Counted from the stretch's first letter, positions 1-18,241 are shown. The stretch: DNA of 32,000 bases from Flavobacteriaceae bacterium (GCA_965224465.1 OZ245049.1:750001-782000), one strand, 5' to 3'. Made by a program: numbers and translations. The notes: a model not told the origin generated them from the sequence alone.

Positions 1-1681
1 AGTACTGGTGGTTTTGCTTTGGAATCTCCGCTATCGGTTATTATATAGTCCTCTCCTCCAGACAATTCTACAATAGGTGCACCGCCTTTTCCTACTAATA
101 ATATATCTCCGTTGCTTGGGTCTACTAGGATTTCTGCTATTTGGAAGTTGACTTCGCTGGTATTTACTTGTCCATCACCTCCATTAAATAGATCCCCTGT
201 ACCCTTTACACTACTCCATGTAGGATCGTAGGTAGTTTTAACGACTCCTTCATACAATTCGTAATCCGTATTTATTTTAATTCCTTTAAACTCTACCGCT
301 ATTTTGGTATCTGCTAAATAAGGAACTACAATATATCCCGTTCCAGAAAAAGTACCATTTCCTCCTTGTTTCTGTTTTACTGTCACAGGGAAATCTCCTG
401 CCGTAAATGTTTCGTTCACGCCAATATTTGCCAATGGCTTAGTGTTGGTAATTTCAATTTCGGGGATAATACCACAGCTATAACTCACCGTTTCGTCCTT
501 GGTAGGCATGGTAAACTGGTTTACATTGCTGTAAGTAAACGCTTGGTTTAAATCCGTTATCTCATGGCAAGTACCACCCACTCTAAAATCGTAGGTAACT
601 CCTGCTTGTAAATTTGATACTTGGGCTTGGTTGTTATAAGAAAATATTTCGAACCATTCGGCATCGGCTACATCGGCACGTTTGTATTGTAAATGATACC
701 TGTTGTGATCTGGATGTGTTTTCCAACTTATTTTCACACGCCCTGTATTTAGCGGTTCTGCCAAAGTCATGGTGGGTGGATAACACTGATTTGTATAGGT
801 AAAATAAAATATTTCGCTATACCCATTGTTCTTAAAAACCGAGTTTTCGCTCAATCCTGTTGTAGATTTTGCGCGTACTCGCCAAGCATAGGTACGCCCT
901 GGCATTAATGGAGGCTTGCTTATGTTGTACGATATGGTAGTGGAATAGGTAGTCTCCGAATGATAAGGAGGCGCTGCTAAAAATCCTGCTTGAGGATCTA
1001 TCTGCGTATCCCAAAGCTCACGCAGTTCAAACTCATAACTTACACCACTCGCATTGGCATGCCGTGGTGTCCATTGAAAAGTAATGTTGGTGGGTTGTAT
1101 ATTAGTCAATTGATCCCCTCGGTTGGGAATATTTAAAAAAGGAGGATCGTTTAACAGTAAAAAGATATTAGAACAGCCTCCCATTTTAGGATTGGAGATG
1201 CGTTGTCCTGATAAAAAATCGTAGACTTCCCAACATATTTTGTAGCGTCCATCAGGTAGTGGTCTGTTGTATTGTTGTGGACTAATGCCTATTAAATTAT
1301 GTAACTGAAAATAGGCTGCTAAATCTATGTTTGTAAATTGTTGTGTACTTTTCCCATTGAGGTAAATAAAAGGTGCTCCTTGTACAAAATTTACAGATTG
1401 TATATTGAGTCCCTGTCCTTGTATTTTTAATTTTAAGCGTATTTGACGGTTGCTAATATTGGCATCGTTCATGGTCAAATACAGCCGTAATTTTACAGCA
1501 GACGTTGTTGCATAACTGTTTAGTTTTGTGTTATAAGGGGGGACTATATTTTGACTTACTTGTACTGGGTGGAGTTGGGCCTGTGTAAGTTGGCAGGTTA
1601 GCAATAGGCAGAATGCAGTTAGCAGTTTTGCGGTGACAGTAGGCAGTTTTGCAGTTGGCAGTAGGCAGTTGAGCATCTTTG
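1..1681. repeat. Copy 1 of a 1.68-kb direct repeat (partner 16311..17970)
   Basis: Line-by-line comparison at offset 16310. nt 91-1631 differ from the partner at 6 positions (166, 354, 455, 510, 791, 889). nt 1-90 differ at 9 positions. A 21-nt insertion (1632-1652) is present only in this copy. Similarity becomes degenerate beyond ~1681. Confidence 0.97.
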
Positions 1682-1901
1682 CGGTTAGAATAGGCAGTTG
1701 CTCTTTGTTGCGGTTATTTGCAGTAGGCGGAATGCAGTTGAGCAACTTTGCGGCAAAAGAAATTAAATATGTTGTACCATTTTTAAAGTTAGAATTTGGT
1801 TTTTTTTCACAACAGTGAGTACTGCCTACTGCCAATTTTAACCTCAACAATGCTCCTGCGTACTGCTTACTGAAAACTGCATACTCTATAAACTTTTTCA
1901 T
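1..1901 (-). CDS. 5' part (N-terminal ~560-630 aa) of a second giant FN3-rich polymorphic-toxin-like protein, paralog of 12362..18241. The gene continues beyond the left window edge.
   Basis: Absent from the ORF track only because it has no stop inside the window. nt 1-1681 are a near-identical copy of 16311-17970, which lies inside the 1959-aa ORF, so the same frame is open. My hand translation of 1677-1901 found no in-frame stop. Candidate starts are ATG at 1901 (overlaps the TGA of the upstream four-helix-bundle remnant as ATGA) and ATG at 1676 (MLNCLLPTAKLPTVTAKLLTAFCLLLTCQLTQAQ, signal-peptide-like). Confidence 0.75.
   Translation of the reverse strand, partial: MKKFIEYAVFSKQYAGALLRLKLAVGSTHCCEKKPNSNFKNGTTYLISFAAKLLNCIPPTANNRNKEQLPILTAKMLNCLLPTAKLPTVTAKLLTAFCLLLTCQLTQAQLHPVQVSQNIVPPYNTKLNSYATTSAVKLRLYLTMNDANISNRQIRLKLKIQGQGLNIQSVNFVQGAPFIYLNGKSTQQFTNIDLAAYFQLHNLIGISPQQYNRPLPDGRYKICWEVYDFLSGQRISNPKMGGCSNIFLLLNDPPFLNIPNRGDQLTNIQPTNITFQWTPRHANASGVSYEFELRELWDTQIDPQAGFLAAPPYHSETTYSTTISYNISKPPLMPGRTYAWRVRAKSTTGLSENSVFKNNGYSEIFYFTYTNQCYPPTMTLAEPLNTGRVKISWKTHPDHNRYHLQYKRADVADAEWFEIFSYNNQAQVSNLQAGVTYDFRVGGTCHEITDLNQAFTYSNVNQFTMPTKDETVSYSCGIIPEIEITNTKPLANIGVNETFTAGDFPVTVKQKQGGNGTFSGTGYIVVPYLADTKIAVEFKGIKINTDYELYEGVVKTTYDPTWSSVKGTGDLFNGGDGQVNTSEVNFQIAEILVDPSNGDILLVGKGGAPIVELSGGEDYIITDSGDSKAKPPV
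1600..1897. repeat. Short GCAGTWG/CTGCCTAC-type repeat field with a 13-bp perfect inverted repeat, at the 5' end of toxin paralog 1
   Basis: G-rich orientation at 1600-1760 (gcagaatgcagttagcagttttgcggtgacagtaggcagttttgcagttggcagtaggcagttgagc) and C-rich orientation at 1821-1897 (actgcctactgcc...ctgcgtactgcttactgaaaactgcatact). ggcagtaggcagt (1657-1669) is the exact reverse complement of actgcctactgcc (1821-1833). Confidence 0.9.
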
Positions 1902-2342
1902 TTAGTACTGTATTTATTCTGGTTTTTAATCATGTAACCTAGGAGCTTTCCAACTTCTTCGGATTTATTATGTAATTCTTCTTTTATTTCTTTTGTTATG
2001 TAATTACAAAGCAAAGTCAAGCCAAACTTGCGTTTTATCTGCTTCTTTTATTTTTTTAGGGGTCAGATAGCATACGCTTATTTCATTTACAGAATAATTT
2101 AAACAAGTAGATTGGCTCAGTTCACTATTTTCCATATCGGCATCGGATAATTTTGTAATAAAATGTTTTGGATACAATCGTTTTCTATATCCCTCCGCTA
2201 AATTAGCACAAACAGACCGAGAACTACGACGTATTTGATCCGTTAACGAATACCGCTCTTCTTTTGGAAATGATTTTGTGTTTTCAAAAATATTCATTGC
2301 CAATTCAAATGCTATTTTATATGCCGTTAATTGTTTATACAT
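1898..2342 (-). pseudogene. Four-helix-bundle protein gene (TIGR02436 / PF05635 23S rRNA intervening-sequence protein, Avd-like family), apparently disrupted by an 87-nt in-frame insertion and a frameshift
   Basis: The ORF 2004..2342 translates MYKQLTAYKIAFELAMNIFENTKSFPKEERYSLTDQIRRSSRSVCANLAEGYRKRLYPKHFITKLSDADMENSE...TQVWLDFAL*. From memory, the family reads ...SDADMENSETQVWLDFAL.C.YI... without a break. Here 29 aa (LSQSTCLNYSVNEISVCYLTPKKIKEADK) separate ENSE from TQVW. After the TAA at 2004 the expected C-terminus continues in another frame (YITKEIKEELHNKSEEVGKLLGYMIKNQNKYSTK*) and ends at the TGA at 1898-1900. Confidence 0.6.
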
Positions 2343-2390
2343 TCTTATTTTCTATAACTTTATATGAACTAGATATTGCCTAATTATCCG

Positions 2391-2502
2391 TAACAATACT
2401 CCTTTCTACTGTAAACTACCTACTCTAAAGACAACAATGCTAAAACTGCCTACGCTATCCGCAACAACTTTCCTGCCTACCGCCTACTGCCTACTACCTA
2501 CT
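2391..2502. repeat. CTGCCTAC-type repeat module upstream of the four-helix-bundle pseudogene
   Basis: taacaatactcctttctactgtaaactacctactctaaagacaacaatgctaaaactgcctac (2391-2453) recurs at 2748-2810 with ~6 mismatches in 63 nt. It is followed by ctgcctaccgcctactgcctactacctact. A related module (tatagacatcagtgctaaaaccgcatactgcatac) sits at ~18110-18155. Confidence 0.85.
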
Positions 2503-2510
2503 AAAAACCT

Positions 2511-2590
2511 TGCGTTAGGGATAGCAGCGGCATCCTTTTTTGTTTTTTACAAAAAAGATATAGCGAATAGCCCGACCCTTGGGGAACGCC
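2511..2590. repeat. GC-rich imperfect palindromic element centred on ttttttgttttttacaaaaaa
   Basis: tgcgttagggatagcagcggcatcc-ttttttgttttttacaaaaaa-gatatagcgaatagcccgacccttggggaacgcc. This is a local GC island in an AT-rich spacer with arms that are only loosely complementary. It sits exactly where the second four-helix-bundle fragment breaks off. Confidence 0.45.
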
Positions 2591-2619
2591 CAAAATTATA
2601 TTTATTCTGAAATTGTTAT

Positions 2620-2704
2620 TCATTCTCTTAGACGTTTTGATTCCATAAATGACTTTGTAACTTCAATAAAATTCTATTGCCAATACAACTACTTTTTTAT
2701 ACAT
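2620..2704 (-). pseudogene. Degraded 5' fragment of a second four-helix-bundle gene
   Basis: The minus strand reads ATG-YKKVVVLAIEFY* (2704..2663). One frame over it reads EVTKSFMESKRLRE* (2664..2620). Compare MYKQLTAYKIAFELAMNIFENTKSFPKEERYSL in the neighbouring copy. It is preceded by the same 63-nt module at the same spacing (~45 nt). Confidence 0.35.
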
Positions 2705-2740
2705 TTTTTCTTCTTTATTTTTTATAGCGATTTACTACGC

Positions 2741-2818
2741 TACCTGCAACAATACTCCTGCCTACAGTAAACTACCTACTCTAAAGACAACAGTGCTAAA
2801 ACTGCCTACCACCTACTA
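2741..2818. repeat. Second copy of the CTGCCTAC-type repeat module
   Basis: gcaacaatactcctgcctacagtaaactacctactctaaagacaacagtgctaaaactgcctaccacctacta. This is ~90% identical over 63 nt to 2391-2453, in the same orientation, 357 nt away. Confidence 0.85.
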
Positions 2819-2820
2819 AA

Positions 2821-4203
2821 TCATTCCTTCATCACCTTCACATCACAAATAACATAAGCACCATCACCAGCATCCACATAGTCTTTTATTTTAATAGCTC
2901 CTTTACGTCCGTCCTGTGTTTCAAACAGTATGATTCTAGGAACTACACTGTTATCGAATTGCAGTAATCCATTGTTTGTTTCTATTATATTTAATACTTT
3001 TAACAGGGTATCATCTATAATACTGTCAAATTCTGCTACAGACAAACTAGCTTCACATTCACAAATTTCTTGTGCGTTGATAAATTTGGTATGGGTGGCA
3101 TTTGGAATGGCGATAAACCCATTTGTTGCTACCTCATCAGGGCTTACAAATTTATTAAAACTAAAGTTCTTATTCAAACCAAAAAAGGCAATATCTATTG
3201 CTGACCCATTTTCTTCTGTTACCTGGTTGGCGGTAAAAATTGTTCTTAATTGTGTAGAGAAGAAAGCTCCTTTAGCATTGGTATTATGTGCATTATTGAT
3301 CCCTAGTTCTATATTAGAAAATGTACGTATGTTTGAATTTGGACGAATGGTTATGGATTTTGTTAGGGTATGCGTTTGTTTTCCATTCCCTGCTTTTAAT
3401 GCTATGGTATAAGTGCCAGGTGTATTAAAAGTTACGGACGGCGTTTTCTCTGTACTTATTTCAGGTGAACCGCTTGGAAGTGTCCATTGAAAAGAGGTCG
3501 CACTGATAGAACTATTGGTCATAGTAATGGTAACAGGAGCTTGATAATCATCGTCAGAAAAGGCAACTTCCCAATCAAAAACTGCTTCGATAGCTGGCGC
3601 CACCGCAATGCTTTTTTCTTCTGAAAACGATTCAAACCCATTGGATACTTTTAAGGAAATTAGATGTTCACCGGGGCTTTCGAAAAACACAGTTGAAGGA
3701 TGTTTTTTTGTTGACGTTGCTGGTGTTCCTCCTTCAAATACCCATGTATATATTAAGCCTTCTCCACCAGTAGTATTTATTATTTTTACTTCCATAGGAG
3801 CATAATTACTGTCAATTATTTCTGTAGAGAAACCAATTGAGATTCCTTCCACCACGGTAATTTCTTGCTCCATACTGTCCGTACTTCCATCTACATTTGA
3901 CACTTTTAAAGTTATGGTATAGCTACCTGCTTTGTTGTATACAATATCTCCTGGATTTTTATCAGAGCTACTAGAAGGTTCTGCTCCTTTAAACGTCCAT
4001 TCAAAAACATCTGCATCAACACTTTGATTGGTGATGGCTATTGTAACAGGAACAGATTTGTCTTCGTTAACAATTAAAATTTTAAAAGCAGCTGTAACAG
4101 GAATTGCCGTTTCTTTATAACAACTGAAACAAAACGATACTAACATTCCCAATAGAATGCTACTTTTTACGATGTTTATATTTAATTTTTTAGTTCCTAT
4201 CAT
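2821..4203 (-). CDS. PKD-domain lipoprotein (three PKD-like repeats plus an unknown ~170-aa C-terminal domain)
   Basis: 460-aa ORF with a lipoprotein-type signal (LLGMLVSFCFSC-YKE). Three repeats carry the PKD-like signature: FEWTFKGAEPSSSSDKNPGDIVYNKAGSYTITLKVSNVDGS, YTWVFEGGTPATSTKKHPSTVFFESPGEHLISLKVSN and FQWTLPSGSPEISTEKTPSVTFNTPGTYTIALKAGN. The ATG overlaps the upstream stop (TAATG at 4201-4205). Confidence 0.85.
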   Translation of the reverse strand: MIGTKKLNINIVKSSILLGMLVSFCFSCYKETAIPVTAAFKILIVNEDKSVPVTIAITNQSVDADVFEWTFKGAEPSSSSDKNPGDIVYNKAGSYTITLKVSNVDGSTDSMEQEITVVEGISIGFSTEIIDSNYAPMEVKIINTTGGEGLIYTWVFEGGTPATSTKKHPSTVFFESPGEHLISLKVSNGFESFSEEKSIAVAPAIEAVFDWEVAFSDDDYQAPVTITMTNSSISATSFQWTLPSGSPEISTEKTPSVTFNTPGTYTIALKAGNGKQTHTLTKSITIRPNSNIRTFSNIELGINNAHNTNAKGAFFSTQLRTIFTANQVTEENGSAIDIAFFGLNKNFSFNKFVSPDEVATNGFIAIPNATHTKFINAQEICECEASLSVAEFDSIIDDTLLKVLNIIETNNGLLQFDNSVVPRIILFETQDGRKGAIKIKDYVDAGDGAYVICDVKVMKE

Positions 4204-7200
4204 TACTTTATTATCATTCGTTTAATACGTGTTTCTTTGGCAGTTTCTAGCACCACAAAGTAGGTTCCTGTTGCTAAATTTAAGCTCATTGATATTTTAT
4301 ATTCTTCTGCTGACGCAAGGTTTGGTTGGGCAAAAATAAAGCTTCCTTGGATGGAAAACACCCGAACGGCAATTTGACTTGATTCTGCTAAATTTATATA
4401 CAATTCAAACTGACCATTATTTGGATTCGGACTTAGGGTAAATTCTTCAATAAAAGGATTGTTGGTATCTCCTGGACTTGGCAAGCCACTATGTTCTTCA
4501 ACAACAATATTTTTATACTGTTCTTCGTAGCATGCTCCTTGGGTTGAAATTAATCCTAGTTCGTAAGTCGCAACTTTTGGAAAACGCAGCGTAATGGACA
4601 GGTCACTTTTTTCTATAATGGCGACTTCCTTTGGGATGATCCATTTAGAAGATGCCCCTTTTGGACTACTAACATTAAATACAATTACATCTTGATTTAC
4701 ATAAGCTTGAGAGGAGAGTAAAAACTCCGAATCAATAATTGTATCATTATATAAAAAAGTAATACTATCGCTAGCTGTACATCCAAGTGCAGAAATTACC
4801 GTGACTTGGTACGTACCTGCTTTTGAGATTGTAATTGAAGGCGTTGTTGCCGAAAAACCGTTATCAGAGGTCCAACTATAGGTGGCATTTTTATCAGATA
4901 TACTTCCATCTACTTCATGTGTTTGGTCTTTACACAATGTTCTGTCGGCACCTAAATCAATGGTGATTTTGGTTGGATGCACGAGTATTATTTCTTTAAA
5001 AGCCTTACACCCATTGCCATCTATTAAAGAGAAGGTGTACGTACCTTGACTAAGGCCCTTAATATCCGTAACTGTTTCTCCAGTATTCCATGCAATGGTA
5101 TAGGGAGGAACTCCGCCCGACAAAGCCAATTCGATACTGCCATCATTCCCTTGAAAACAAGTTGGATGCTTTTCTTTTAAAACCGTTATTTGTAATCCTC
5201 CAGGTTGCGCTATCCCAATATTCCCTGTTACTTGACAGCCACGAGCATCGGTAATAAAAACCAGATAATTTCCTGCGATTAGATTGTTTGCCGTTGCTGT
5301 ATCTTGCCCATTAGACCATTCAATTTTATAGGGAGGAATACCTCCAGTAATTGTTACTGTTGCTGTGGCATTATCTCCTGTATCACAAGAAATTTCAGTT
5401 TTTGACAATGCAACTTCTAGGAGTTCGGGTTCCTGAAAGTAATATATCAGATCCGTTGGGTTTATTAATTGTAAACTTTTATACACTCCAATTACGACTC
5501 CACGACTATCTGCTACATTTAATGCATATTTACCATGAGATAATCCCATAGCTGTATTTGTATTTTGATTTAAGTCCTCAAAATCACCATTTTTATTTTC
5601 TTTTTTCCAATAGTACATATAAGGTTGTCCCTCAGTAAATGGCACCCCTCCCGTAACAGTAACGTGCAACGCTCCGTCAGAAAAAGGATTGTTAAAACTA
5701 TTGTCTCCGTGGCAAGAAATAGGCTTGTGTACACTTAATATAGCTTCTATTGGATCGTATAACATAAATACATTATCCGCTATAGTACAACCATCGCCTG
5801 TGTTTGCAAGAGAGGAATTGGCATCTTCTATGGTTAAATAATACGCACCTTTTGGTAGCTTATTCAAACGTATTTGAAATATCCCATTTACGATACCTGT
5901 AGTTGTTTGTGCATTCAAAATTCCACCGTTGGCATCTTGCCAATAATACGTATAACTTCCATTTTTAAAATCGGTTCCCCCCGTAATTTGGGCTACGATC
6001 CATCCGTCAGAGGCTCCACCTATAGATGGAGTTTCAAACGCCGTATATTTTATAGATATGGACGCTGTTGGCTGGTTTATTTGAATACTTCCTGTAGTAT
6101 GACAGCCACTGCTATCACTAACAGCAACCTCATACACGCCCTGATTTAGATTGGAGATTTGTTCTGTAACACCCCCATTAGACCATAAAACAGTATAGGG
6201 AGGTTTTCCTCCAGAAACAATTATTTTCGCCCAAGCATCGCTGCCGTTGAAGCAATACACATCTTGTTTTTCTATGCTCAGTTCAAGTAGGGAGGGCTCT
6301 TTAAAGAGATAGAGAACATCCGTAGCATTTACAAGTAGGTTGTTCTGATAAACACCAATTATAATTCCATTGGCATCCTCAATATTAACCGCATAATTCC
6401 CTGCATCCAAGTTGTTGGCTATATTGGTAGTTTGTGTAGTTAATACCGTCCAAACACCAGGGTTAATTTCTTTTTTCCATGTGTAATAATACGCCAACCC
6501 ATTGTTATCTGTAGGTTGTAAATGTACACCTCCTTCTGCAATAACTTCCAATACACCATCGGCAAAAGGATCTTCATAAGTATTGGCACTATTACATGAT
6601 ATTGGTTGTTGTAATTCTATTCTTGCCATTAGTGGTGCAGGTTCAAAAATCTCATAGTCACTACTAACAATGGTACAGTTTGTCTTATTAATTGCTACGG
6701 AGTAATTCTTATCTTCAATAGTTAAGTCATACACACCTTTACCCAGATTATTGAGAGTTATCACATAACTTGTTGCATGGACAGTTTCGGTTACTTTTGC
6801 ATTCAAATTAGCACCATTGGTATCTTTCCAATGATACTTGTACTTCCCAGAATCCATGGAGGTCCCTCCTGTTATTGTCGCTTCAATCCAGCCATTGGTT
6901 GCCCCTGTATATGTGGGTGCAAAAAAAGCAGTATAGTTAATTACTAAAGGATTTTCTGGTTCCTTAATTGTGATGTTTGCTTGAGCTTGACAACCTTTTA
7001 TATCGGTAACATCAATTGTATAAGTCCCCGCTACTAAGGTGTCGATATCTTCTGTACTAGCACCATTAGTCCATAAAATTGTATAATCCCCAGTCCCTCC
7101 TGTAATGGTGGCGTTAATACTCCCATCATTTCCTGCATTACAAAACACATCTACTTTTGTGAATGTTATTTGTAGCAGTTCCGGTTGTGTAAGTGTATAT

Positions 7201-9272: not shown

Positions 9273-9276
9273 CTCC

Positions 9277-11397
9277 TTAAAATTTAACAGTTACTTTTTT
9301 AACTAGTGAATATTTTCCATTTGTTAAGGTAGCTCTGATATGATATGTATATGTAGTATTTGGGAAAACAGCGGTATCAACAAGTCTTTTTATATGTACG
9401 GGCACAATGCGCCAAGTAGTAGGATCCTTATCATTTTCTTGCTTATAAATGGTGTATTCAGCAATTAAATCGTCAGCGGATCTCCAAAAAAGTTCTATAG
9501 TATTTTCGGTTCTGTACACAATAAAATTTATTTCTTTGATAATTACTGGAGGCCTTAAATCAATAACATTGATGGTAAGCATGGTAGACGGCAATGATAT
9601 TAAACCACTATTATCTATGGCTTTTATAGCATACTGATAGGTCTTGTCTGCTTCCACATCTTTGTCTGTAAAATTTTGTATGGTATCTGTTACTTTGTAA
9701 ATCGTTTCCCAACTGCTACTGTCTGTTATGTTTTTTCTAGAAAGTATATGAGTCGCACCTTCCTCAGAAGAATTAATCCAATTTAGTTTCACCACTCCTT
9801 TTTCGACTTTATAATTCGAAAAAACGGGTGCTGTTGGAGGAATTACATCTGGTTTTTCCAATATCAATACTTCTGATTTATTGGAATGATTGTATCGTTT
9901 ATCCACTGCAACTACTTGGTAATAGACCTTTGCATTTAAGTTTTTCACCTCCACTGTATCTATAAATTGATTGGTTGGAATAGGAGAAACTGTTAACTGG
10001 GAAGTCTCTTCTTTCTTATTAAAGCCTCTAAAAATTCGGTAACCAAGCAAATCCTTTTCTTTATTGGCTTTCCAATAAAACGTAGCAATCCCCAAGCTAT
10101 CTATTTTCCCCTCTAAAGTAATCGGAGTGGCTGGTGGAATTGAATCAACAGGCTGTATAAGTTTACTATACGAAGTTTTTTGTTGCTTTGGTGTAATTCC
10201 TACTGCCGTAATGGTGAAATAATTAGAAGGCTCTAATTCCGAATATATAAGTTGTCTTTGAGATACCAAAATATTATCCATAACTACTTTATAAGGACCT
10301 TCATCTTTTTCCGATTGATTCAATTGAAATTTCTTCGTAACAAGTTCTCCTTCGACAGGAAACTCCCACATAATTTCAACTTCGTTTTCTTTTTTAGTGA
10401 ATTTAAAATCTGAAATACGTGGAGTAAAAGGTAACGTTGGCATTCCTTGCCCTTTTATGGTATCGGAATAGCTTCCTTTTTCTCCAAAAGGAGAAATCCC
10501 GTTTACACGGTAATAATATGTTTTTTGATTTTGTGCCAAGGAATCTATATAATACATTCGCTTTGCAGGTGCGTTTGGTTTATCATTCAAATTAACCAAT
10601 GGTTGATCACTTACTGGGACAAAAGTATTTCCATCTTCGGAGCGTTCCAAGTTATATGAAGTATACACATTTTTAAACAAGGCGTATTCCCACGTAATTA
10701 TGGCACTTTTATCTCCAAATACCCCTTGTAAATCTATAGGTACTGGTAGCGGTTCATAATTATCTAGCCCTGCTAAAACAGCCGAACTTTTTATATCTAA
10801 TTCCTCTTTTGACAATGCCGATTTAATTTTATAAGCATAGGTTTCATTTGATTTCACATCGGTATCTGTATATCCCCATCCTGCTTTTGATGCTGCTTCA
10901 AAATTCATATCTGCCGCTAACAATGCAAAAGAAAAACGTTGTTCATTTTCTTGCACGATATTAACAATAGTTGCCAATGCTCCTTGAGAACCTTCTACAT
11001 TAAAACGTTCCCCGTAAATTGCCTGTGCAATGATGGCTGCATAATCATTATTTTCTACAATTTCTTGCCATGTTTCTAAGGGAGCTGCTTTTATAGATTT
11101 TGACCATAGCTTTTGTGCCACCGGTAAACGTTTTCCGTTTTTAGAAAACAAGTATTTTTCCAATATAAAACCACTGGTATTTGTTTTTCCCCAAGCCAGT
11201 GCTTCATCCACTGCCCAACGCAGTAATATATTTTTTTCTTGAACACGTGATAGAAGTCTGACAGATGGGAGGCTGTCTTGTTGTTTTACTTGGGAAAACC
11301 CAAAAGTAAATACAAACATACAAACCAATCTTATCATAAAAATTATTGATTTTTCATGAATTTGATGCATACCATTTATAGATGTTTTATTCGTCAT
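9277..11397 (-). CDS. Secreted multi-fibronectin-type-III-domain protein
   Basis: 706-aa ORF. A hydrophobic signal-like segment (MIRLVCMFVFTFGFSQ) begins at an internal Met at 11337. There are repeated ~90-aa units ending in FN3-like Y.Y.V.A.D..GN.S motifs (YYYRVNGISPFGEKGSYS, VYYQVVAVDKRYNHSNKS, YQYAIKAIDNSGLISLPS, YTYHIRATLTNGKYS). Confidence 0.85.
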   Translation of the reverse strand: MTNKTSINGMHQIHEKSIIFMIRLVCMFVFTFGFSQVKQQDSLPSVRLLSRVQEKNILLRWAVDEALAWGKTNTSGFILEKYLFSKNGKRLPVAQKLWSKSIKAAPLETWQEIVENNDYAAIIAQAIYGERFNVEGSQGALATIVNIVQENEQRFSFALLAADMNFEAASKAGWGYTDTDVKSNETYAYKIKSALSKEELDIKSSAVLAGLDNYEPLPVPIDLQGVFGDKSAIITWEYALFKNVYTSYNLERSEDGNTFVPVSDQPLVNLNDKPNAPAKRMYYIDSLAQNQKTYYYRVNGISPFGEKGSYSDTIKGQGMPTLPFTPRISDFKFTKKENEVEIMWEFPVEGELVTKKFQLNQSEKDEGPYKVVMDNILVSQRQLIYSELEPSNYFTITAVGITPKQQKTSYSKLIQPVDSIPPATPITLEGKIDSLGIATFYWKANKEKDLLGYRIFRGFNKKEETSQLTVSPIPTNQFIDTVEVKNLNAKVYYQVVAVDKRYNHSNKSEVLILEKPDVIPPTAPVFSNYKVEKGVVKLNWINSSEEGATHILSRKNITDSSSWETIYKVTDTIQNFTDKDVEADKTYQYAIKAIDNSGLISLPSTMLTINVIDLRPPVIIKEINFIVYRTENTIELFWRSADDLIAEYTIYKQENDKDPTTWRIVPVHIKRLVDTAVFPNTTYTYHIRATLTNGKYSLVKKVTVKF

Positions 11398-11408
11398 TTA
11401 TTCTTTTT

Positions 11409-11636
11409 TTAACAATTTAATTTATCCGATAATTCTACAATAGGTGCACCGCCTTTTCCTACTAATAATATATCTCCGTTGCTTGGGTCTACTAGGATTT
11501 CTGCTATTTGGAAGTTTACCTGTTTCACTGCATACGTTCCTTGCTGTTTTTGAACAGCGTGCTGCTGTGCTACTGCTATTTGAAAAAAGCAGGAACATAG
11601 GAATAGTAGGATTGTATGTAGGTTTTTAAGTGGCAA
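11409..11636 (-). CDS. 75-aa orphan ORF: signal-peptide-like N-terminus fused to a 30-aa segment copied from the toxin paralogs. Possibly a gene remnant.
   Basis: Translation ...KNLHTILLFLCSCFFQIAVAQQ...VNFQIAEILVDPSNGDILLVGKGGAPIVELS-DKLNC*. The underlying nt 11428-11516 match 61-149 (88/89) and 16371-16459 (86/89). There is no ATG: the ORF opens with TTG (11636..11634) immediately after an in-frame stop. Confidence 0.4.
   Translation of the reverse strand: MPLKNLHTILLFLCSCFFQIAVAQQHAVQKQQGTYAVKQVNFQIAEILVDPSNGDILLVGKGGAPIVELSDKLNC
11428..11516. repeat. Third copy of the 89-nt junction segment of the toxin paralogs
   Basis: gataattctacaataggtgcaccgccttttcctactaataatatatctccgttgcttgggtctactaggatttctgctatttggaagtt. 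It carries the copy-2 base at the position equivalent to 63 and the copy-1 bases at 75, 81 and 84, so it is a mosaic. Confidence 0.95.
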
Positions 11637-11682
11637 TATTTATTTGTTTATCATTTTTTTTATTGTTCTATTTGCATCGCCG

Positions 11683-12357
11683 CTAAGTCGGGAGACTTTG
11701 CGCAGCGGGTAAATCTTCTTTAAATAACTCCTCAAATACTTTTAAAATATCTTTATAAGTATCTTTTTTTTTAGCTTGGATTTTTAAAATATTATAATAT
11801 TCAATCAGCTTTTCATTAAAATCCGGATGCTTAACGAGTTTTAATATTAAAATTGTTTTTGGAAATAATATGGAGCCTTGAATATATGGCACTACTTCCT
11901 GAGGTTTTTTATCAGCCAACAAATCTGCCACCTTCTCTAAAGTGTTATATTTCTCAAAAAAAGGTAATGAGTATTGCTGAATGATTTTTTGGATTTGCTC
12001 ATTAACCAATTGAAACGATTTAAGGTCATTTATTTCCGTACTAAAAGCAGAGTAATCAACATTTTCTAACTGGTTCAAAACATTTCTTATGGTTCTTACT
12101 TCTTCGCTTGGTTTCCTAACTCTTGTCTTTTCGTATGCATCATTTAATGTTTTTTCTACATTATGGAATGATATTCCTATTGAAATTCCATCTATGAATA
12201 CTCCGTGAGGAAAATATTTTCTATCTTGTATATATATTAATTTATCATATTTCATCCCTTTTGATATTAGTGAAATACCATTGTCTACCCTAGTAAATCC
12301 CAGAGGCATTTCAAGGATATTCTCCCAATCTGTAACATAGTTTTTCTTTAAATACAT
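11683..12357 (-). CDS. Candidate cognate immunity protein (assigned by position only); cytoplasmic, family not recognised
   Basis: 224-aa ORF whose ATG (12357) lies 4 nt after the toxin stop (12362-12364). It has no signal peptide or hydrophobic segment (MYLKKNYVTDWENILEMPLGF...). I recognised no motif. Confidence 0.8.
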   Translation of the reverse strand: MYLKKNYVTDWENILEMPLGFTRVDNGISLISKGMKYDKLIYIQDRKYFPHGVFIDGISIGISFHNVEKTLNDAYEKTRVRKPSEEVRTIRNVLNQLENVDYSAFSTEINDLKSFQLVNEQIQKIIQQYSLPFFEKYNTLEKVADLLADKKPQEVVPYIQGSILFPKTILILKLVKHPDFNEKLIEYYNILKIQAKKKDTYKDILKVFEELFKEDLPAAQSLPT

Positions 12358-12361
12358 AATG

Positions 12362-15300
12362 TTATATTTTTTTTATTCCTGTAATAATATCCCCGTTTGC
12401 TCCATCGTGCACTTTATACCATTGTATCTCTCCATTAAAACTTAAAATTTCTCCTCCTTTTAATTCATTTTTACTACCATCTATTTTAGATTTTTTCGGA
12501 TTAGAGGCACGAACACTATAACTACCTTTTCCCTTTGCAGCCTTTTGGTTAGGTGTTAAACGAGTGCCACTGCTAAGTTTGTTTTCTATAATTATGATAT
12601 CATCTATATCTCCATAAGCATCATATTTTACAAAAACTTGGTCTGCTACAAAATAATCTACTTTTTTGCCATTAGCCAATGTTACCTCTCCAAAACTTAA
12701 TTGTACTTGTGAGAACATATCGTATTCATCTAGATTTTTGTTAAAGTCTGCACTAAATTTTTGTTTTAATTCCAAGTACTTATCAGAGAGGCGGTTTTTA
12801 AATTTTTCTAGGCAGACAAATTTTTCAAAATCATTTCCCTTTTTTGTTACCACTTTAAAGAAATTGGCTTTAGCCCATTTTCTCCATATTCCTGTACCAT
12901 CTTCACCTAATTCAAAAGCATAGGCAGCATCGTCTTTAAGTAGTTTCCAGGCTTCCACATCTTCTGCCCCAACTATGAGATCTTTAAGCTCATCTCCATT
13001 ACTTTTAGAAGCAAAATCCATGTTTAATTTACTCCAATAGGATTCTCCAATTTCATCAATTTTTTTTATTATGTCAATATTCTCAACTTCATCTAAATTA
13101 GATACCCATGTTTTCAAATTTGGAAAATCATCCATTTTATTCAACAATGCAGTAATAGCCTCACTGTGTTTCACCGTTGTCCCAAGTATTCTCTTAGCCT
13201 CAGCAATATCCCCTACTAAATCATCAACGTTACCTAGTCCAGCTTCAATCTCAAGATGTGTAACCCAAATTTTTGCTTCTTTTATTTTATTAGGGTTCGC
13301 TGTGTTAATCGTTTTAATGTCTCCTTCTGCATCTTTTAATTTGTCTAAGAATAATTTAGCCTGATTTTTACTTGGCAGCGTTTTATTTAGAGTTTTAGTT
13401 TTAGAAAAAATCTTTTTTAAATTAGCTACATTAGATATTTCACCAATGGCAATAGTGGCAGTTAAAACGTTTAGGGCGTCTAAAAAAGCTTTGCCTTGTG
13501 GGCTTAAATTTTCTGTACCTATGGCTGTGGTAGTCAAACTAACTCCTGAGCCAAGCATATCCGCAATAATAAAAGTTTTTCGCATTAAACTTGGAGCCTT
13601 TGTAAGAGCTCCATAACCAGAAGCTAAACTTGCAACATCTACAGTTGCTTGTACCCCATCTACAACTACTTGCGTATTTCCAACATCGCTAGCATAAAAA
13701 GCAACTATGGCAGGGCTAATTACAGGTACATCATCGTTATATTCACTTAACATGCTTAACCCTGATTTATTGGTGAAATAAATTGGAGAATAAGGATGTA
13801 ATGCCAATGGTATAGCTGTAGAGACAATATCATTGCCAACAAATTTATCGGTATAAAGTGAAATTGTGGAAATTGTCTCATCTTCCTCCGATAGCCATTT
13901 TACTCTTGTGTCATACGAGTATAGATTTTTGCCATTCAGAAAATTCCATAACACAGGTAAATCTCCCAAAGTCAAGTTCCAAAAAGACTTGTAATAAAAT
14001 TTGATGTTTCTCTCAATTAACTCATCTTCCTTTAAACTTCCTAGTTCCGTTAAAAAGAATGTTGACTTATTAACATTTAAATCTGCGAGTACATTAATTA
14101 AATTCTTATAATTATCTTCATGAAAATAAGTGTGGTCATTATCTGTTTTATATACTAATTTACGAAGTAGGTTATAGTCTGCAGTTGCTACTTTAGAAAC
14201 ACTGTTTATTCCATCTAATAACCCGTCAACTTCAGTTTTTTTCGTGAATTTTATTAACCTAATTAACTGTTTTTCTTTTTCATTGTCCAGAGTCCACTTG
14301 TCTAGCATTAAGCTAAGTATTATCAATTTTTTATCAATTGATATATCTTCAATCTCATTGTTAGACAAAAATGCAATACATTTATGTAAATCAGATATTT
14401 TACTTTCTCCATCTATTGAACTCAATAAATGTGCACAATCTTTGGTTTCATTTTTTACACCATTTACAAATTGAACATACTTTTGAATTAATGAATCCTT
14501 TTTTAATGTTTTTAATGCCTCGTAAGCTATCTCAGATGGGACACTACTTAAATAGTTAGGAATAACCTTATCCATGGCATCAGGATATGCATTGTTAAGT
14601 ACTGCAATTTTTGAAGCTATAAGATACAGGGAATTCCAATCAATAATTTCCCCTAATATTTCCTTAATTAATTTCCCTTCCAAATTATATAGTTCAGGAA
14701 ACGGAATATTCTTCGCAAAAGTATAGTCATTTTTTTCTAGAACCTCTCCTGTATAGAACTTACTAAACCTATTATAATTTGATAAAATATTTGTCTCCTT
14801 TTGAGAACCCCAAGTTAAATTATCAACTTTATTAAGAGAAAGTCTTCTTGATTTATCTGTTAAAATAAGTATGATTACTTTACCGAAACTTCGTTTATTA
14901 TCTTCAGAAAGCACAAACTCCTCACCTGTGTCAGATTCAAAACCAAAATAATCAAAAGTAAAATCAGTAATAGTTATATCTGTACTTAATTCATTATTTA
15001 CTCTTTTCGCTTTATACTTATTACTATCCAATGTAAAACCTATAAGTGCACCTGTAGGGTATTTTATAAATTCATTTATTTTATCTAAACTAGTAACAAA
15101 CCTGATATTTTCTATTTTTGAAGGAAGTGTGATATAACTTCCGTTCAAAGTCATAAAAGTATATGTTCCGTTCGAATTTTTAAATTTACTAGGAATTCCA
15201 GAAATAGTGGTGCTCTCCCCTTCACTATCCCCATCAAAAACCCCAATCCTCAATTTCGGATTGTGTATGGCTTTCCAATGTACATAAGGTAAATGCTCTC

Positions 15301-18241
15301 CATTATTATAATCTAGTAACCAATTGGTACTTCCTGTAGCATATTTATAACTATGCGTAGAGAATGGATGTTTTAGTTGGAAGGCACCGTGGGCGAGTTC
15401 GTGTGCTACGGTTATCCCCCCAGCCCCAGAAGGGGGAGAATTTGCGGTAAAAATATAACCGAATTGTCTGCCTAGTGGCATGAGTCCTTTTTCTCCTGCG
15501 GAGCTTGGCTGTTTGTCTGTTAAGATTAAATAATAAGCTTCAGGGTTAAAGTTACCATGCTCTTTTAATGCCTTATTTATACTACGCTGTTGCTCCGTGT
15601 ATTGCGCTGCAAAGCCACTTTCTCCACTTTTTATAGTGCCGTCTGGTGTTAAACTGTTTAGGGTCGCTGTAAAATCGTTAATTACAGAAATATTTAGGCT
15701 AACTGCTGCTTGTTGGTAAATAGCTTTTAGTTTTTTTGTAATGGCACTTGTATTCGCATTTGAAGTATTTACCAATACTACGGCCACTTCCTTTATGGCA
15801 ATTTGGTATTGCATAAAAGCCCCTGCTATTTGGTATTTATCGCCTTGTTTTACTAAGGCTTGGGTTTCTATATCGGCATCGCTTAGCGTTCCTTTTAATT
15901 TTAAGGTGTAAGAAGTACTAGTACTATCTACTTTTTTCAGTCCTACACCATCTTTGGTTTTAAAAATAATGTCTTGAGGTTTTATACTATCGTTGGTAAT
16001 TTTGAAATTGGCAACAATAAAAGCTACCTTGCCCTTGGCTACCGCTTTGTAAGGCATGTAATAAGCTGCTCCTAACTTTTTGTACAAGTCCTTGGTTTGT
16101 GATTGGCTTGAGTTGTAGGCGTCGAATCCAGTGGGCAGTGTTGCAGTAGGCAGTTGGGTGAACGTTACGGTGACACCTTGTGCGGTGATGTTGGTGGCTT
16201 CTCCTTTGCTGTTTACGCCTGTGGTATTTTCCACAGTGGTAGTACCGCCTTCGGCTTGTGGACCTAATTCGGTTACATTTCCTTGTTCGTCTACATGGTA
16301 TTTTTTTGGTAGTACTGGCGGTTTTGCTTTGGGGTCTCCGCTATCGGTTATTATATAGTCTTCGCCTCCAGATAATTCTACAATGGGTGCTCCTCCTTTT
16401 CCTACTAATAATATATCTCCGTTGCTTGGGTCTACTAGGATTTCTGCTATTTGGAAGTTGACTTCACTGGTATTTACTTGTCCATCACCTCCATTAAATA
16501 GATCCCCTGTACCCTTTACACTACTCCATGTAGGATCGTAGGTAGTTTTAACGACTCCTTCATACAATTCGTAATCCGTATTTATTTTAATTCCTTTAAA
16601 CTCTACCGCTATTTTGGTATCTGCTAAATAAGGAACTACAATATATCCCGTTCCAGAAAAAGTTCCATTTCCTCCTTGTTTCTGTTTTACTGTCACAGGG
16701 AAATCTCCTGCCGTAAATGTTTCGTTCACGCCAATATTTGCCAATGGCTTAGTGTTGGTAATTTTAATTTCGGGGATAATACCACAGCTATAACTCACCG
16801 TTTCGTCCTTGGTAGGCATTGTAAACTGGTTTACATTGCTGTAAGTAAACGCTTGGTTTAAATCCGTTATCTCATGGCAAGTACCACCCACTCTAAAATC
16901 GTAGGTAACTCCTGCTTGTAAATTTGATACTTGGGCTTGGTTGTTATAAGAAAATATTTCGAACCATTCGGCATCGGCTACATCGGCACGTTTGTATTGT
17001 AAATGATACCTGTTGTGATCTGGATGTGTTTTCCAACTTATTTTCACACGCCCTGTATTTAGCGGTTCTGCCAAAGTCATGGTGGGTGGATAACACTGAT
17101 CTGTATAGGTAAAATAAAATATTTCGCTATACCCATTGTTCTTAAAAACCGAGTTTTCGCTCAATCCTGTTGTAGATTTTGCGCGTACCCGCCAAGCATA
17201 GGTACGCCCTGGCATTAATGGAGGCTTGCTTATGTTGTACGATATGGTAGTGGAATAGGTAGTCTCCGAATGATAAGGAGGCGCTGCTAAAAATCCTGCT
17301 TGAGGATCTATCTGCGTATCCCAAAGCTCACGCAGTTCAAACTCATAACTTACACCACTCGCATTGGCATGCCGTGGTGTCCATTGAAAAGTAATGTTGG
17401 TGGGTTGTATATTAGTCAATTGATCCCCTCGGTTGGGAATATTTAAAAAAGGAGGATCGTTTAACAGTAAAAAGATATTAGAACAGCCTCCCATTTTAGG
17501 ATTGGAGATGCGTTGTCCTGATAAAAAATCGTAGACTTCCCAACATATTTTGTAGCGTCCATCAGGTAGTGGTCTGTTGTATTGTTGTGGACTAATGCCT
17601 ATTAAATTATGTAACTGAAAATAGGCTGCTAAATCTATGTTTGTAAATTGTTGTGTACTTTTCCCATTGAGGTAAATAAAAGGTGCTCCTTGTACAAAAT
17701 TTACAGATTGTATATTGAGTCCCTGTCCTTGTATTTTTAATTTTAAGCGTATTTGACGGTTGCTAATATTGGCATCGTTCATGGTCAAATACAGCCGTAA
17801 TTTTACAGCAGACGTTGTTGCATAACTGTTTAGTTTTGTGTTATAAGGGGGGACTATATTTTGACTTACTTGTACTGGGTGGAGTTGGGCCTGTGTAAGT
17901 TGGCAGGTTAGCAATAGGCAGAATGCAGTTAGCAGTTTTGCAGTTGGCAGTAAGCAGTTGAGCATCTTTGTGAAAATAGTAGGCAATTGCTTGTTGTTGC
18001 GGATATTTGTAGTATGCGGTATGCAGTTGAGCATCTTTGTGGTAAGATTTTTTAAATTAAACTTTGATTTTATTTCACAACAGTGAGTACTGCAAACTGC
18101 ATCCAGAAAACTGCGTACTTTATAGACATCAGTGCTAAAACCGCATACTGCATACTTTAACCTCAACAACATTCCTGCAATCTGCTTACTGCTTACCATG
18201 CGTAACATTTTATTTATTAAATTTGAGAACATTCTTTTCAT
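12362..18241 (-). CDS. Giant modular polymorphic-toxin-like protein: FN3-rich N-terminal region, HExxH metallopeptidase motif, long helical region, hydrophobic pre-toxin helices, PD-(D/E)xK-like C-terminal domain
   Basis: 1959-aa ORF. FN3-like segments include TNITFQWTPRHANASGVSYEFELRELW...RTYAWRVRAKS and GRVKISWKTHPDHNRYHLQYKRADVADAEWFEI...GVTYDFRVGG. The peptidase motif is ITVAHELAHGAFQLKHPF. The C-terminus reads GNDFEKFV...VDYFVAD...IIIIENKLSSGTRLTPNQ. There is no T9SS CTD. The start is ambiguous. The ATG at 18241 overlaps the upstream stop (TAATG), but the first signal-peptide-like segment begins at Met93 (17965: MLNCLLPTAKLLTAFCLLLTCQLTQAQ). Confidence 0.9.
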   Translation of the reverse strand: MKRMFSNLINKMLRMVSSKQIAGMLLRLKYAVCGFSTDVYKVRSFLDAVCSTHCCEIKSKFNLKNLTTKMLNCIPHTTNIRNNKQLPTIFTKMLNCLLPTAKLLTAFCLLLTCQLTQAQLHPVQVSQNIVPPYNTKLNSYATTSAVKLRLYLTMNDANISNRQIRLKLKIQGQGLNIQSVNFVQGAPFIYLNGKSTQQFTNIDLAAYFQLHNLIGISPQQYNRPLPDGRYKICWEVYDFLSGQRISNPKMGGCSNIFLLLNDPPFLNIPNRGDQLTNIQPTNITFQWTPRHANASGVSYEFELRELWDTQIDPQAGFLAAPPYHSETTYSTTISYNISKPPLMPGRTYAWRVRAKSTTGLSENSVFKNNGYSEIFYFTYTDQCYPPTMTLAEPLNTGRVKISWKTHPDHNRYHLQYKRADVADAEWFEIFSYNNQAQVSNLQAGVTYDFRVGGTCHEITDLNQAFTYSNVNQFTMPTKDETVSYSCGIIPEIKITNTKPLANIGVNETFTAGDFPVTVKQKQGGNGTFSGTGYIVVPYLADTKIAVEFKGIKINTDYELYEGVVKTTYDPTWSSVKGTGDLFNGGDGQVNTSEVNFQIAEILVDPSNGDILLVGKGGAPIVELSGGEDYIITDSGDPKAKPPVLPKKYHVDEQGNVTELGPQAEGGTTTVENTTGVNSKGEATNITAQGVTVTFTQLPTATLPTGFDAYNSSQSQTKDLYKKLGAAYYMPYKAVAKGKVAFIVANFKITNDSIKPQDIIFKTKDGVGLKKVDSTSTSYTLKLKGTLSDADIETQALVKQGDKYQIAGAFMQYQIAIKEVAVVLVNTSNANTSAITKKLKAIYQQAAVSLNISVINDFTATLNSLTPDGTIKSGESGFAAQYTEQQRSINKALKEHGNFNPEAYYLILTDKQPSSAGEKGLMPLGRQFGYIFTANSPPSGAGGITVAHELAHGAFQLKHPFSTHSYKYATGSTNWLLDYNNGEHLPYVHWKAIHNPKLRIGVFDGDSEGESTTISGIPSKFKNSNGTYTFMTLNGSYITLPSKIENIRFVTSLDKINEFIKYPTGALIGFTLDSNKYKAKRVNNELSTDITITDFTFDYFGFESDTGEEFVLSEDNKRSFGKVIILILTDKSRRLSLNKVDNLTWGSQKETNILSNYNRFSKFYTGEVLEKNDYTFAKNIPFPELYNLEGKLIKEILGEIIDWNSLYLIASKIAVLNNAYPDAMDKVIPNYLSSVPSEIAYEALKTLKKDSLIQKYVQFVNGVKNETKDCAHLLSSIDGESKISDLHKCIAFLSNNEIEDISIDKKLIILSLMLDKWTLDNEKEKQLIRLIKFTKKTEVDGLLDGINSVSKVATADYNLLRKLVYKTDNDHTYFHEDNYKNLINVLADLNVNKSTFFLTELGSLKEDELIERNIKFYYKSFWNLTLGDLPVLWNFLNGKNLYSYDTRVKWLSEEDETISTISLYTDKFVGNDIVSTAIPLALHPYSPIYFTNKSGLSMLSEYNDDVPVISPAIVAFYASDVGNTQVVVDGVQATVDVASLASGYGALTKAPSLMRKTFIIADMLGSGVSLTTTAIGTENLSPQGKAFLDALNVLTATIAIGEISNVANLKKIFSKTKTLNKTLPSKNQAKLFLDKLKDAEGDIKTINTANPNKIKEAKIWVTHLEIEAGLGNVDDLVGDIAEAKRILGTTVKHSEAITALLNKMDDFPNLKTWVSNLDEVENIDIIKKIDEIGESYWSKLNMDFASKSNGDELKDLIVGAEDVEAWKLLKDDAAYAFELGEDGTGIWRKWAKANFFKVVTKKGNDFEKFVCLEKFKNRLSDKYLELKQKFSADFNKNLDEYDMFSQVQLSFGEVTLANGKKVDYFVADQVFVKYDAYGDIDDIIIIENKLSSGTRLTPNQKAAKGKGSYSVRASNPKKSKIDGSKNELKGGEILSFNGEIQWYKVHDGANGDIITGIKKI
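12365..12830 (-). other. C-terminal ~155-aa putative restriction-endonuclease-fold (PD-(D/E)xK) toxin domain
   Basis: The catalytic-type residues occur in the expected order: E in GNDFEKFV, D in VDYFVAD, E-x-K in IIIIENK (codons at 12578-12586), then TPNQ. This matches the generic E...D...ExK...Q layout of PD-(D/E)xK nucleases. I could not assign a subfamily. Confidence 0.5.
15389..15403 (-). other. HExxH zinc-metallopeptidase motif (HELAH) inside the toxin
   Basis: The reverse complement of gtgggcgagttcgtg is cac gaa ctc gcc cac. The context is GITVAHELAHGAFQLKHPF, with a third His 7 residues after the second. Confidence 0.7.
16311..17970. repeat. Copy 2 of the 1.68-kb direct repeat (partner 1..1681)
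   Basis: See the partner feature. It encodes aa ~93-643 of the 1959-aa protein. Confidence 0.97.
17925..18200. repeat. Short GCAGTWG/CTGCTTAC-type repeat field with an 11-bp perfect inverted repeat, at the 5' end of toxin paralog 2
   Basis: gcagtaagcag (17947-17957) is the exact reverse complement of ctgcttactgc (18182-18192). The unit gcagttgagcatctttg occurs twice, 69 nt apart, giving Met70 and Met93 (KMLNCIP.../KMLNCLL...). The region shares modules with 1820-1897, 2391-2453 and 2748-2810. Confidence 0.9.

Follow-up and report, generated by a model that had tools for sequence, protein, structure and literature searches.

Polymorphic toxins of the TANFOR class were defined in 2020 as proteins with a Sec signal, polymorphic C-terminal toxin domains and immunity genes located downstream (Jana, Salomon and Bosis 2020, PMC7073777). 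Their gene neighbourhoods are enriched in SprB repeats, type IX secretion system (T9SS) sorting domains, PKD domains and Fn3 domains, and their export through the T9SS has been proposed but not shown (PMC7073777). Recombination, orphan genes and the homogenisation of paralogs are not discussed in that paper, and neither the export route nor the mode of diversification of TANFOR toxins has been worked out yet. The locus described here lies in a stretch of 32,000 nt from a marine Flavobacteriaceae bacterium (GCA_965224465.1 OZ245049.1:750001-782000), which is referred to as the window, with positions counted from its first letter. The window carries the 5' part of one TANFOR-like toxin gene (copy 1, 1..1901) and a second, complete one (copy 2, 12362..18241), both on the minus strand, as are all long open reading frames (ORFs) of the window. 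The two genes share a near-identical tract of ~1.55 kb, and the best explanation, to which we give a probability of roughly three in four, is that they are old TANFOR paralogs that acquired this tract by recent gene conversion, in preference to a fresh duplication. The locus would thereby provide a dated example of within-genome recombination in this toxin class.

Relation to described toxin systems

Copy 1 is open from an ATG at 1901 to nt 3 at the window edge (633 codons), and copy 2 comprises 1959 codons and encodes a product that is 100% identical to a database protein (P0001). The product of copy 2 starts with a region termed module A, in which the signal peptide is followed by a TANFOR-like domain and a pair of Fn3 domains. 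Next comes module B, where an HExxH motif occupies residues 947-958; the remainder consists of an extended variable region and, at the C-terminus, a domain carrying a D...(E/D)xK pattern. Conservation across the toxin family is highest in module A. A hydrophobic stretch, LLTAFCLLLTCQLTQAQ, followed by LHPVQV, aligns with the N-termini of the relatives and was read by eye as a putative Sec signal peptide. The start codon of the toxins is ambiguous, with an ATG at 1901/18241 and another at 1676/17965.

The locus resembles the described TANFOR toxins (PMC7073777) in several respects. The toxins are large Flavobacteriia proteins with a putative Sec signal, a TANFOR-like N-terminal domain and Fn3 domains, a small candidate immunity gene lies downstream, several copies occur per genome and the neighbouring genes encode SprB repeats, a T9SS sorting domain, PKD and Fn3 domains. 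The C-terminal toxins are likewise variable among relatives (AHH, EndoU, deaminase, NUC, ART and REase-type). A homology search yielded more than 330 Flavobacteriia proteins that share the first ~46% of copy 2, and according to precomputed Pfam assignments their C-terminal domains include AHH (PF14412), EndoU (PF14436), deaminase (PF14424), NucA (PF13930), ADP-ribosyltransferase (ART, PF01129), Tox-REase (PF15652) and others. An initial annotation, made from the sequence alone, had taken the genes for polymorphic toxins, and the joining of one shared N-terminal part to such different C-terminal domains among the relatives bears this out.

A difference from the described class lies in the strength of the domain match. 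The Pfam scan of copy 2 detects two Fn3-type domains only (residues 274-364 and 396-474), and the TANFOR model TIGR02542 (T_forsyth_147) aligns, through positions 8-135 of its 145, with the segment of module A that immediately follows the signal peptide. This match is weak (E = 0.021), and its 14.7 bits fall well short of the curated threshold of 67. All 13 other family members that were scanned match TIGR02542 at the same place, with E values from 0.06 to 1e-8 and with scores that likewise stay under the threshold. The model is the top-ranked match for copy 2 and in 11 of these 13, and a lower-ranked one in P0198 and P0218, and three of the scanned members carry the TANFOR name from NCBI or JGI.

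Rhs, CdiA and MafB loci combine N-terminal parts that are conserved with C-terminal cassettes that recombine (Zhang et al. 2012, PMC3482391). The present locus shares with them a conserved delivery part, variable tails and sharp identity junctions, multiple paralogs per genome with recombinable conserved parts, and small residual pieces of the conserved part located 3' of the immunity gene. Unlike those systems, the toxins of the window lack Rhs/YD repeats, FHA and TPS domains and the junction motifs VENN and PxxxxDPxGL. Furthermore, the first of the family junctions described below (J1) separates module A from whole alternative C-terminal halves and not from a toxin tip of ~150-300 residues. 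Conversion of module A is an expected outcome under the general polymorphic-toxin paradigm (PMC3482391), and it refines the known picture without changing it. As far as the searchable literature shows, the elements that are new with respect to the TANFOR literature are two fixed junctions, the conversion tract and a second toxin inside the accessory cluster, and no later paper that takes up recombination, orphans or paralogs in this class was found.

A near-identical tract between diverged flanks

In an ungapped comparison, nt 1-1631 align without gaps to 16311-17941 at an offset of 16310, and a repeat finder reports the pair 1-300/16311-16610 at the same spacing. The right-hand repeat corresponds to the 5' third of the copy-2 ORF. 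Beyond nt 1631 the ungapped register is lost, so that the repeat measures 1631 nt and not the 1.68 kb of the initial annotation. The differences between the copies are distributed very unevenly over this length: nt 91-1631 differ from 16401-17941 at 6 positions (156, 354, 455, 510, 791 and 879), whereas nt 1-90 differ from 16311-16400 at 9 (9, 23, 24, 51, 54, 63, 75, 81 and 84). These counts reproduce the earlier ones exactly. The contrast of 9/90 versus 6/1541 is highly significant (Fisher p = 1.2e-8), and the maximum chi-square breakpoint falls at nt 84, with a statistic that was matched in 0 of 2000 permutations. Over the whole ungapped repeat 12 of the 15 differences are synonymous. The near-identical tract (91..1631 in copy 1 and 16401..17941 in copy 2, both minus strand) is 99.6% identical; its 6 differences are scattered, and 2 of them change amino acids. 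It holds the core of the signal peptide, the TANFOR-like domain, the two Fn3 domains and the beginning of the linker that follows.

Relative to the direction of the genes, the repeat has its downstream side at the window edge and its upstream side at position 1631/17941. On the downstream side, the visible flank of copy 1 (1..90, minus strand) shares 90% of its nucleotides with 16311-16400. Eight of the 9 differing sites in these 30 codons are synonymous third positions, leaving 29 of 30 residues identical. Synonymous divergence (dS), calculated according to Nei-Gojobori, amounts to ~0.50 in this 30-codon flank and to 0.012 in the tract. The identity had been described as collapsing at the window edge; what is measured there is a step to sequences that are still clearly related, and the visible flank argues against an immediate change to an unrelated tail in copy 1.

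On the upstream side, the tract ends at a 21-nt indel (1631/17941), after which homology resumes and reaches the ATG codons at 1901 and 18241. This edge falls within a degenerate heptamer array, and the indel equals three heptamers. A global alignment of 1632-1901 with 17942-18241 contains 195 matches, 32 mismatches and 116 gap columns, corresponding to ~86% identity over the aligned columns. The segment of copy 1 concerned (1632..1901, minus strand) encodes a diverged N-terminal extension, or leader, with degenerate heptamer arrays and a predicted hairpin (z = -4.83). Identity had previously been reported to drop at one edge only; it drops at both edges of the tract.

Probable gene conversion and alternative explanations

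The pattern expected of gene conversion is a block of near-identity between flanks that are homologous and more diverged, synonymous sites included, and this is the pattern found, with a downstream flank of 90 nt. Because an older, diverged layer of homology flanks the tract on both sides, at synonymous sites as well, the tract is best explained by gene conversion between paralogs that already existed. The initial annotation had left recent duplication and ongoing gene conversion side by side and had suggested computing dS along the alignment; the jump from 0.012 to ~0.50 has the form expected of a conversion tract, and the diverged homologous flanks favour the conversion half of that proposal and disfavour the fresh duplication.

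Under the conversion model, an old paralog pair, with a synonymous divergence of ~0.5 where it is visible, would have undergone a recent non-reciprocal recombination that copied ~1.55 kb from one gene to the other and homogenised the first ~520 codons. The copied tract would run from the heptamer region encoding the signal peptide to ~20-40 codons past the end of the N-terminal module. Module A presumably serves for export or delivery in concert with the surface proteins encoded nearby, and its homogenisation may keep both toxins compatible with one accessory set. The near-perfect direct repeat of 1.5 kb that is left behind could be the substrate for new exchanges and for loss or amplification of the 16.3-kb unit between the copies.

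The alternative that survives best, though it is unlikely, is a recent partial duplication in which just 1.6 kb from the 5' end of one toxin gene was duplicated and joined to another tail; this would make a chimeric gene with no conversion involved. The restriction of near-identity to one block agrees with such an origin, and family members do pair the same N-terminal block with unrelated tails. However, copying and fusing would leave edges that are either unrelated or equally identical and not an older homology layer, and both flanks here are homologous yet more diverged (86% with indels upstream; 90%, with 8 of 9 changes synonymous, downstream).

An assembly artefact, in which one module-A sequence entered the assembly at two places or consensus polishing partly merged two diverged copies, is considerably less probable still. 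A 1.5-kb repeat at 99.6% identity is of the size at which short-read assemblies and polishers err, and the product of copy 1 is unexpectedly missing from the protein collection. Against this, the six differences are scattered through the tract and two of them alter the protein, the 21-nt indel and distinct flanks bound the tract, each copy sits in a different and interpretable gene context that matches related genomes, and the 5.24-Mb contig suggests a long-read assembly. Selection in place of recombination, by which module A would be kept identical through extreme constraint, has next to no probability even though this is the most conserved part of the family, since synonymous sites are identical too in the tract (dS 0.012), an equally conserved segment just downstream has a dS of ~0.5, and the orthologs in the three related genomes introduced below (L001-L003) are 71-77% identical in DNA across module A.

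Several points nevertheless weigh against gene conversion or limit how far it can be taken. The dS of ~0.5 rests on 8 synonymous changes in the 90 visible nt of the downstream flank, and neither the direction nor the number of conversion events can be read from the sequence. Misassembly is formally possible, judged from the assembled sequence, and the export role of module A is a hypothesis of the literature (PMC7073777). In addition, the product of copy 1 was absent from three protein homology searches, which used as queries the entire copy-2 protein, the N-terminus of copy 1 and a concatenate of five such N-termini and covered lengths of ~350-5750 aa. These searches returned proteins of ~0.55-1.75 times the query length, so the absence depends on the length of the protein; for example, a 1945-aa protein with 91% identity along the entire 633-aa query was missing from that query's results. 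The concatenate served to circumvent this apparent length filter and recovered P0001 as a control. Exact look-ups of the partial copy-1 product, translated from each of seven possible start codons, gave no match in the protein collection, with the caveat that TTG-start variants were translated with L instead of M and that cut products are perhaps not stored. Ten other proteins of the window and P0001 are present in the collection, as singletons assigned to a contig of 5,241,564 bp. It is possible that copy 1 is broken, or that a gap or disruption lies just left of the window.

The repeat, the steps in identity, the contrast at synonymous sites, the synteny, the junctions in the toxin family and the co-occurrence of toxin tail and immunity gene are direct results; we infer the conversion event, how module A functions in export and what a deletion would produce. 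From the geometry of the repeats, which are direct as had been noted earlier, a single crossover would join the 5' end of copy 2 to the 3' part of copy 1, with the loss of 16.3 kb; this product was not observed. The deletion would remove the copy-2 tail, the 224-aa candidate immunity gene, a short toxin-gene stub, the genes for the 706-aa, 1689-aa and 460-aa proteins, the four-helix-bundle gene and the leader of copy 1, and the same exchange between sister chromosomes would duplicate the unit. Such deletions are probably selected against, because the surface-protein genes that would be lost are conserved TANFOR partners in several genera. A smaller exchange is also conceivable: if a 92-nt patch in the stub recombined with the matching sequence of copy 2, at a spacing of 4943 nt, no more than the copy-2 tail and its candidate immunity gene would be lost.

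Junctions in the toxin family

All pairs among 301 family proteins were surveyed for an N-terminal block at least 93% identical that is followed by more than 100 divergent residues. There are 64 such pairs, so the proposed association of N-terminal identity with different tails does occur in the toxin family. The break in identity could be placed on copy-2 coordinates for 53 of them, and it falls at residues 1008-1025 (J2) in 34, at residues 574-591 (J1) in 17 and elsewhere in 2. The homology of relatives to copy 2 thus ends at a few preferred places.

The downstream end of the near-identical tract lies between copy-2 residues 592 and 616, just past J1, and the 92-nt patch of the stub starts at residue 593; therefore, the tract spans the module that behaves as one unit across the family. 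Since the two copies stay homologous beyond the tract edge, unlike the family pairs, this edge is a conversion boundary with no visible tail swap. Recombination at this locus would thus homogenise exactly the module that is shared by the relatives, while the family survey adds two discrete junctions for tail exchange. The presumed handle for export or delivery thereby acquires defined domain limits.

The HExxH motif precedes J2 by ~50 residues. Its extended form, HE(L/I/V)(G/A)HGxxxLxH (copy-2 residues 947-958; 15400-15435 in the window, minus strand), is invariant in 166 of 166 aligned relatives, and the segment has no match to a Pfam family. The motif suggests a zincin-type peptidase that may release the variable C-terminal part.

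Heptamer arrays and a predicted leader hairpin

The 5' ends of both toxin ORFs (1590-1890 and 17900-18215, minus strand) contain GCAGTA-type heptamers followed by reverse-complementary heptamers of the TACTGC type, and Tandem Repeats Finder reports a period of 7 at 1588-1671 and 17925-17964. From these arrays a long hairpin is predicted that would span the N-terminal extension, the internal ATG in the same frame (1676/17965) and the codons for the signal peptide. Folding gives z-scores of -4.8 for 1590-1890 and -4.1 for 17900-18215, and of -6.5 and -5.7 for the corresponding regions of two related genomes (L001, 9922-10071, and L003, 10005-10154). The heptamer sequence varies between genomes and the arrangement is kept. 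A leader hairpin is absent from the regions folded for the related genome L002 and for four loci with more distant TANFOR genes (L004-L007). Because the unit is 7 nt long, the gain or loss of one heptamer would shift the reading frame.

A more elaborate scheme can be drawn from these features. Module A would serve as a shared recombination handle with exchange at J1 (after Fn3) and J2 (after HExxH), one accessory cluster would serve interchangeable toxin halves, and the leader hairpin (150-300 nt) would act as a slippage-prone or structure-based switch that chooses the expressed copy. We regard this scheme as speculative and, taken as a whole, doubtful.

The accessory cluster and the position of copy 2

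A conserved accessory cluster lies between the two copies (2004..11397, minus strand), defined by Pfam and NCBIfam matches. In the direction of transcription it comprises a gene for a 706-aa protein (9277-11397), a gene for a 1689-aa protein with SprB repeats (E = 3e-52) and a Por_Secre_tail domain (E = 4.5e-13; 4203-9272), a gene for a 460-aa protein with PKD repeats (E = 2.7e-23; 2821-4203) and a gene for a 112-aa four-helix-bundle protein of the 23S rRNA intervening-sequence protein family (2004-2342), which appears to be disrupted. The first gene of the conserved cluster encodes a 1593-aa protein and is located upstream of copy 2 (18241..23022, minus strand), where its stop codon overlaps the ATG of copy 2. 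A genome-contig scan returned three relatives, at 63-76% identity. The related genomes compared here are a Flavobacteriaceae metagenome-assembled genome (MAG; L001), Tamlana sp. 2201CG12-4 (L002) and another MAG (L003). The C-terminus of the 1593-aa protein aligns with the ends of its homologs in L002 (71%) and L003 (70%), and a 1624-aa homolog in L006 is 35% identical.

The order of the cluster is kept in L001-L003 and in L005. In L001-L003 the toxin homolog follows directly after the orthologs of 693 aa, 1669 aa, 454 aa and the four-helix protein, in the same order as for copy 1 in the window. In L002 and L003 the end of the 1593-aa homolog is followed by a lipoprotein gene of ~150 codons (153 and 154 aa) with a terminator hairpin, and then by the 693-aa gene. 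In the window, a 6.8-kb insertion (11398..18241, minus strand) consisting of copy 2, the immunity-like gene and the stub takes the place of this lipoprotein gene and terminator. When proteins of L001, L002 and L003 were compared with the window by tblastn, no remnant of the lipoprotein gene was found, with nothing below E = 0.9. The insertion starts exactly at the ATG of copy 2; a similar overlap is seen in L001-L003, where the stop codon of the four-helix gene and the ATG of the ancestral copy share nucleotides. Synteny in these three genomes places the toxin after the four-helix gene, which identifies copy 1 as the resident, ancestral gene and copy 2 as an insertion that separates the first two genes of the cluster. 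The strain thereby represents a natural case of two toxins with one accessory cluster, in which it can be asked whether the SprB, PKD and 706-aa neighbours are required for delivery. The two-copy arrangement was not seen at the P0109 and P0117 loci, which come from genomes with two paralogs and hold a single toxin gene within 20 kb.

Two observations concern the region just upstream of copy 1. The four-helix gene region (1905-2342, minus strand) encodes 112 aa, compared to 119-143 aa for the orthologs in L001-L003, and contains ~93 extra nt at ~2028-2120; the conserved C-terminal codons (NYITKEIKEELHNKSEEVGKLLGYMIKN) now lie past the stop codon and in another frame. The spacer between the PKD and four-helix genes (2343-2820) is 478 nt long and full of CTGCCTA-type repeats like those at the toxin 5' ends, versus ~45 nt in L002, and it contains two 69-nt units (2385-2453 and 2741-2809) that are 90% identical.

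A putative stub of a third toxin gene

A 75-codon ORF (11409..11636, minus strand), located after the immunity-like gene and directly upstream of the 706-aa gene, appears to be the stub of a third TANFOR gene. It encodes, in order, a TANFOR-like signal peptide and a junction peptide, followed by a stop codon. Residues 1-29 resemble residues 17-43 of a family member (P0007), comprising the signal peptide and the start of the mature protein (53% identity, E = 0.012). Residues 40-70 correspond to the 92-nt patch (11428..11519, minus strand), which has abrupt edges, matches copy-1 nt 61-152 and copy-2 residues 593-623, and shows 2 mismatches to copy 1 and 4 to copy 2. The patch begins right after the family junction J1, and the stop codon follows five codons beyond it, ahead of the 706-aa gene.

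An orphan cassette of the Rhs/CdiA type was considered for the stub and ruled out, as it has no toxin tail and no immunity gene; this sets it apart from the orphans of Rhs, CdiA and MafB loci, which carry an alternative tail and immunity gene. Two origins are conceivable for the stub: it may be a third paralog that has lost most of its sequence, or the remnant of a junction carried along where the insertion ends. Repeat searches detected no orphan junction fragments in L001 and L002.

The C-terminal domain of copy 2 and its candidate immunity gene

Counterparts of the last ~200 residues of copy 2 occur in six further members of the family, and the D...(E/D)xK pattern is invariant across the seven homologous tails. 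Sequence searches of this toxin domain against Pfam, NCBIfam and the PDB gave no match. An AlphaFold model of the domain has a pLDDT (predicted local distance difference test) of 78, and its comparison with the PDB by Foldseek returned nothing significant, the best E value being 0.13 and the nuclease chains of AddB and SduA reaching a probability of at most 0.3. From the conserved pattern, the copy-2 tip is a likely candidate for a PD-(D/E)xK nuclease, possibly of the BaCT type. The described BaCT/BaCTic pair consists of a PD-(D/E)xK DNase and its immunity protein (PMC7073777), and copy 2 resembles it in the D...(E/D)xK tail and in a co-occurring gene of ~220 codons within 5 nt; this likeness is one of motif and gene layout, and neither Pfam nor NCBIfam gives a match.

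The gene in question encodes 224 aa (11683..12357, minus strand) and starts 5 nt after the toxin stop codon. Two relatives with the same tail have readable contigs (L006 and L007), and in each a homolog of the 224-aa protein (44% and 35% identity, respectively) is encoded immediately downstream of the toxin. The protein has no match to a Pfam or NCBIfam family. By position and co-occurrence, the gene shows the behaviour of a cognate immunity gene, and it is a candidate for that role with respect to the copy-2 tail.

The G+C content of the variable part of copy 2 and the immunity-like gene (12000-15000) is 0.28-0.34, compared to 0.40-0.42 in module A and ~0.35 in the rest of the window. The low value of the tail would fit a history differing from that of the N-terminal module.

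In L006, a metagenome contig, the toxin and immunity gene are followed by the 1624-aa homolog of the 1593-aa gene and then by a 697-aa gene (3472-14731). TANFOR clusters may therefore be arranged head to tail, each opened by a gene of the 1593-aa type. The toxin homolog of Tamlana (L002) is a 1106-codon ORF with a tail unrelated to that of copy 2, and downstream of it (13206-17977) lies a run of seven small ORFs of 134-233 aa, several with signal peptides, which looks like an array of immunity-type genes.

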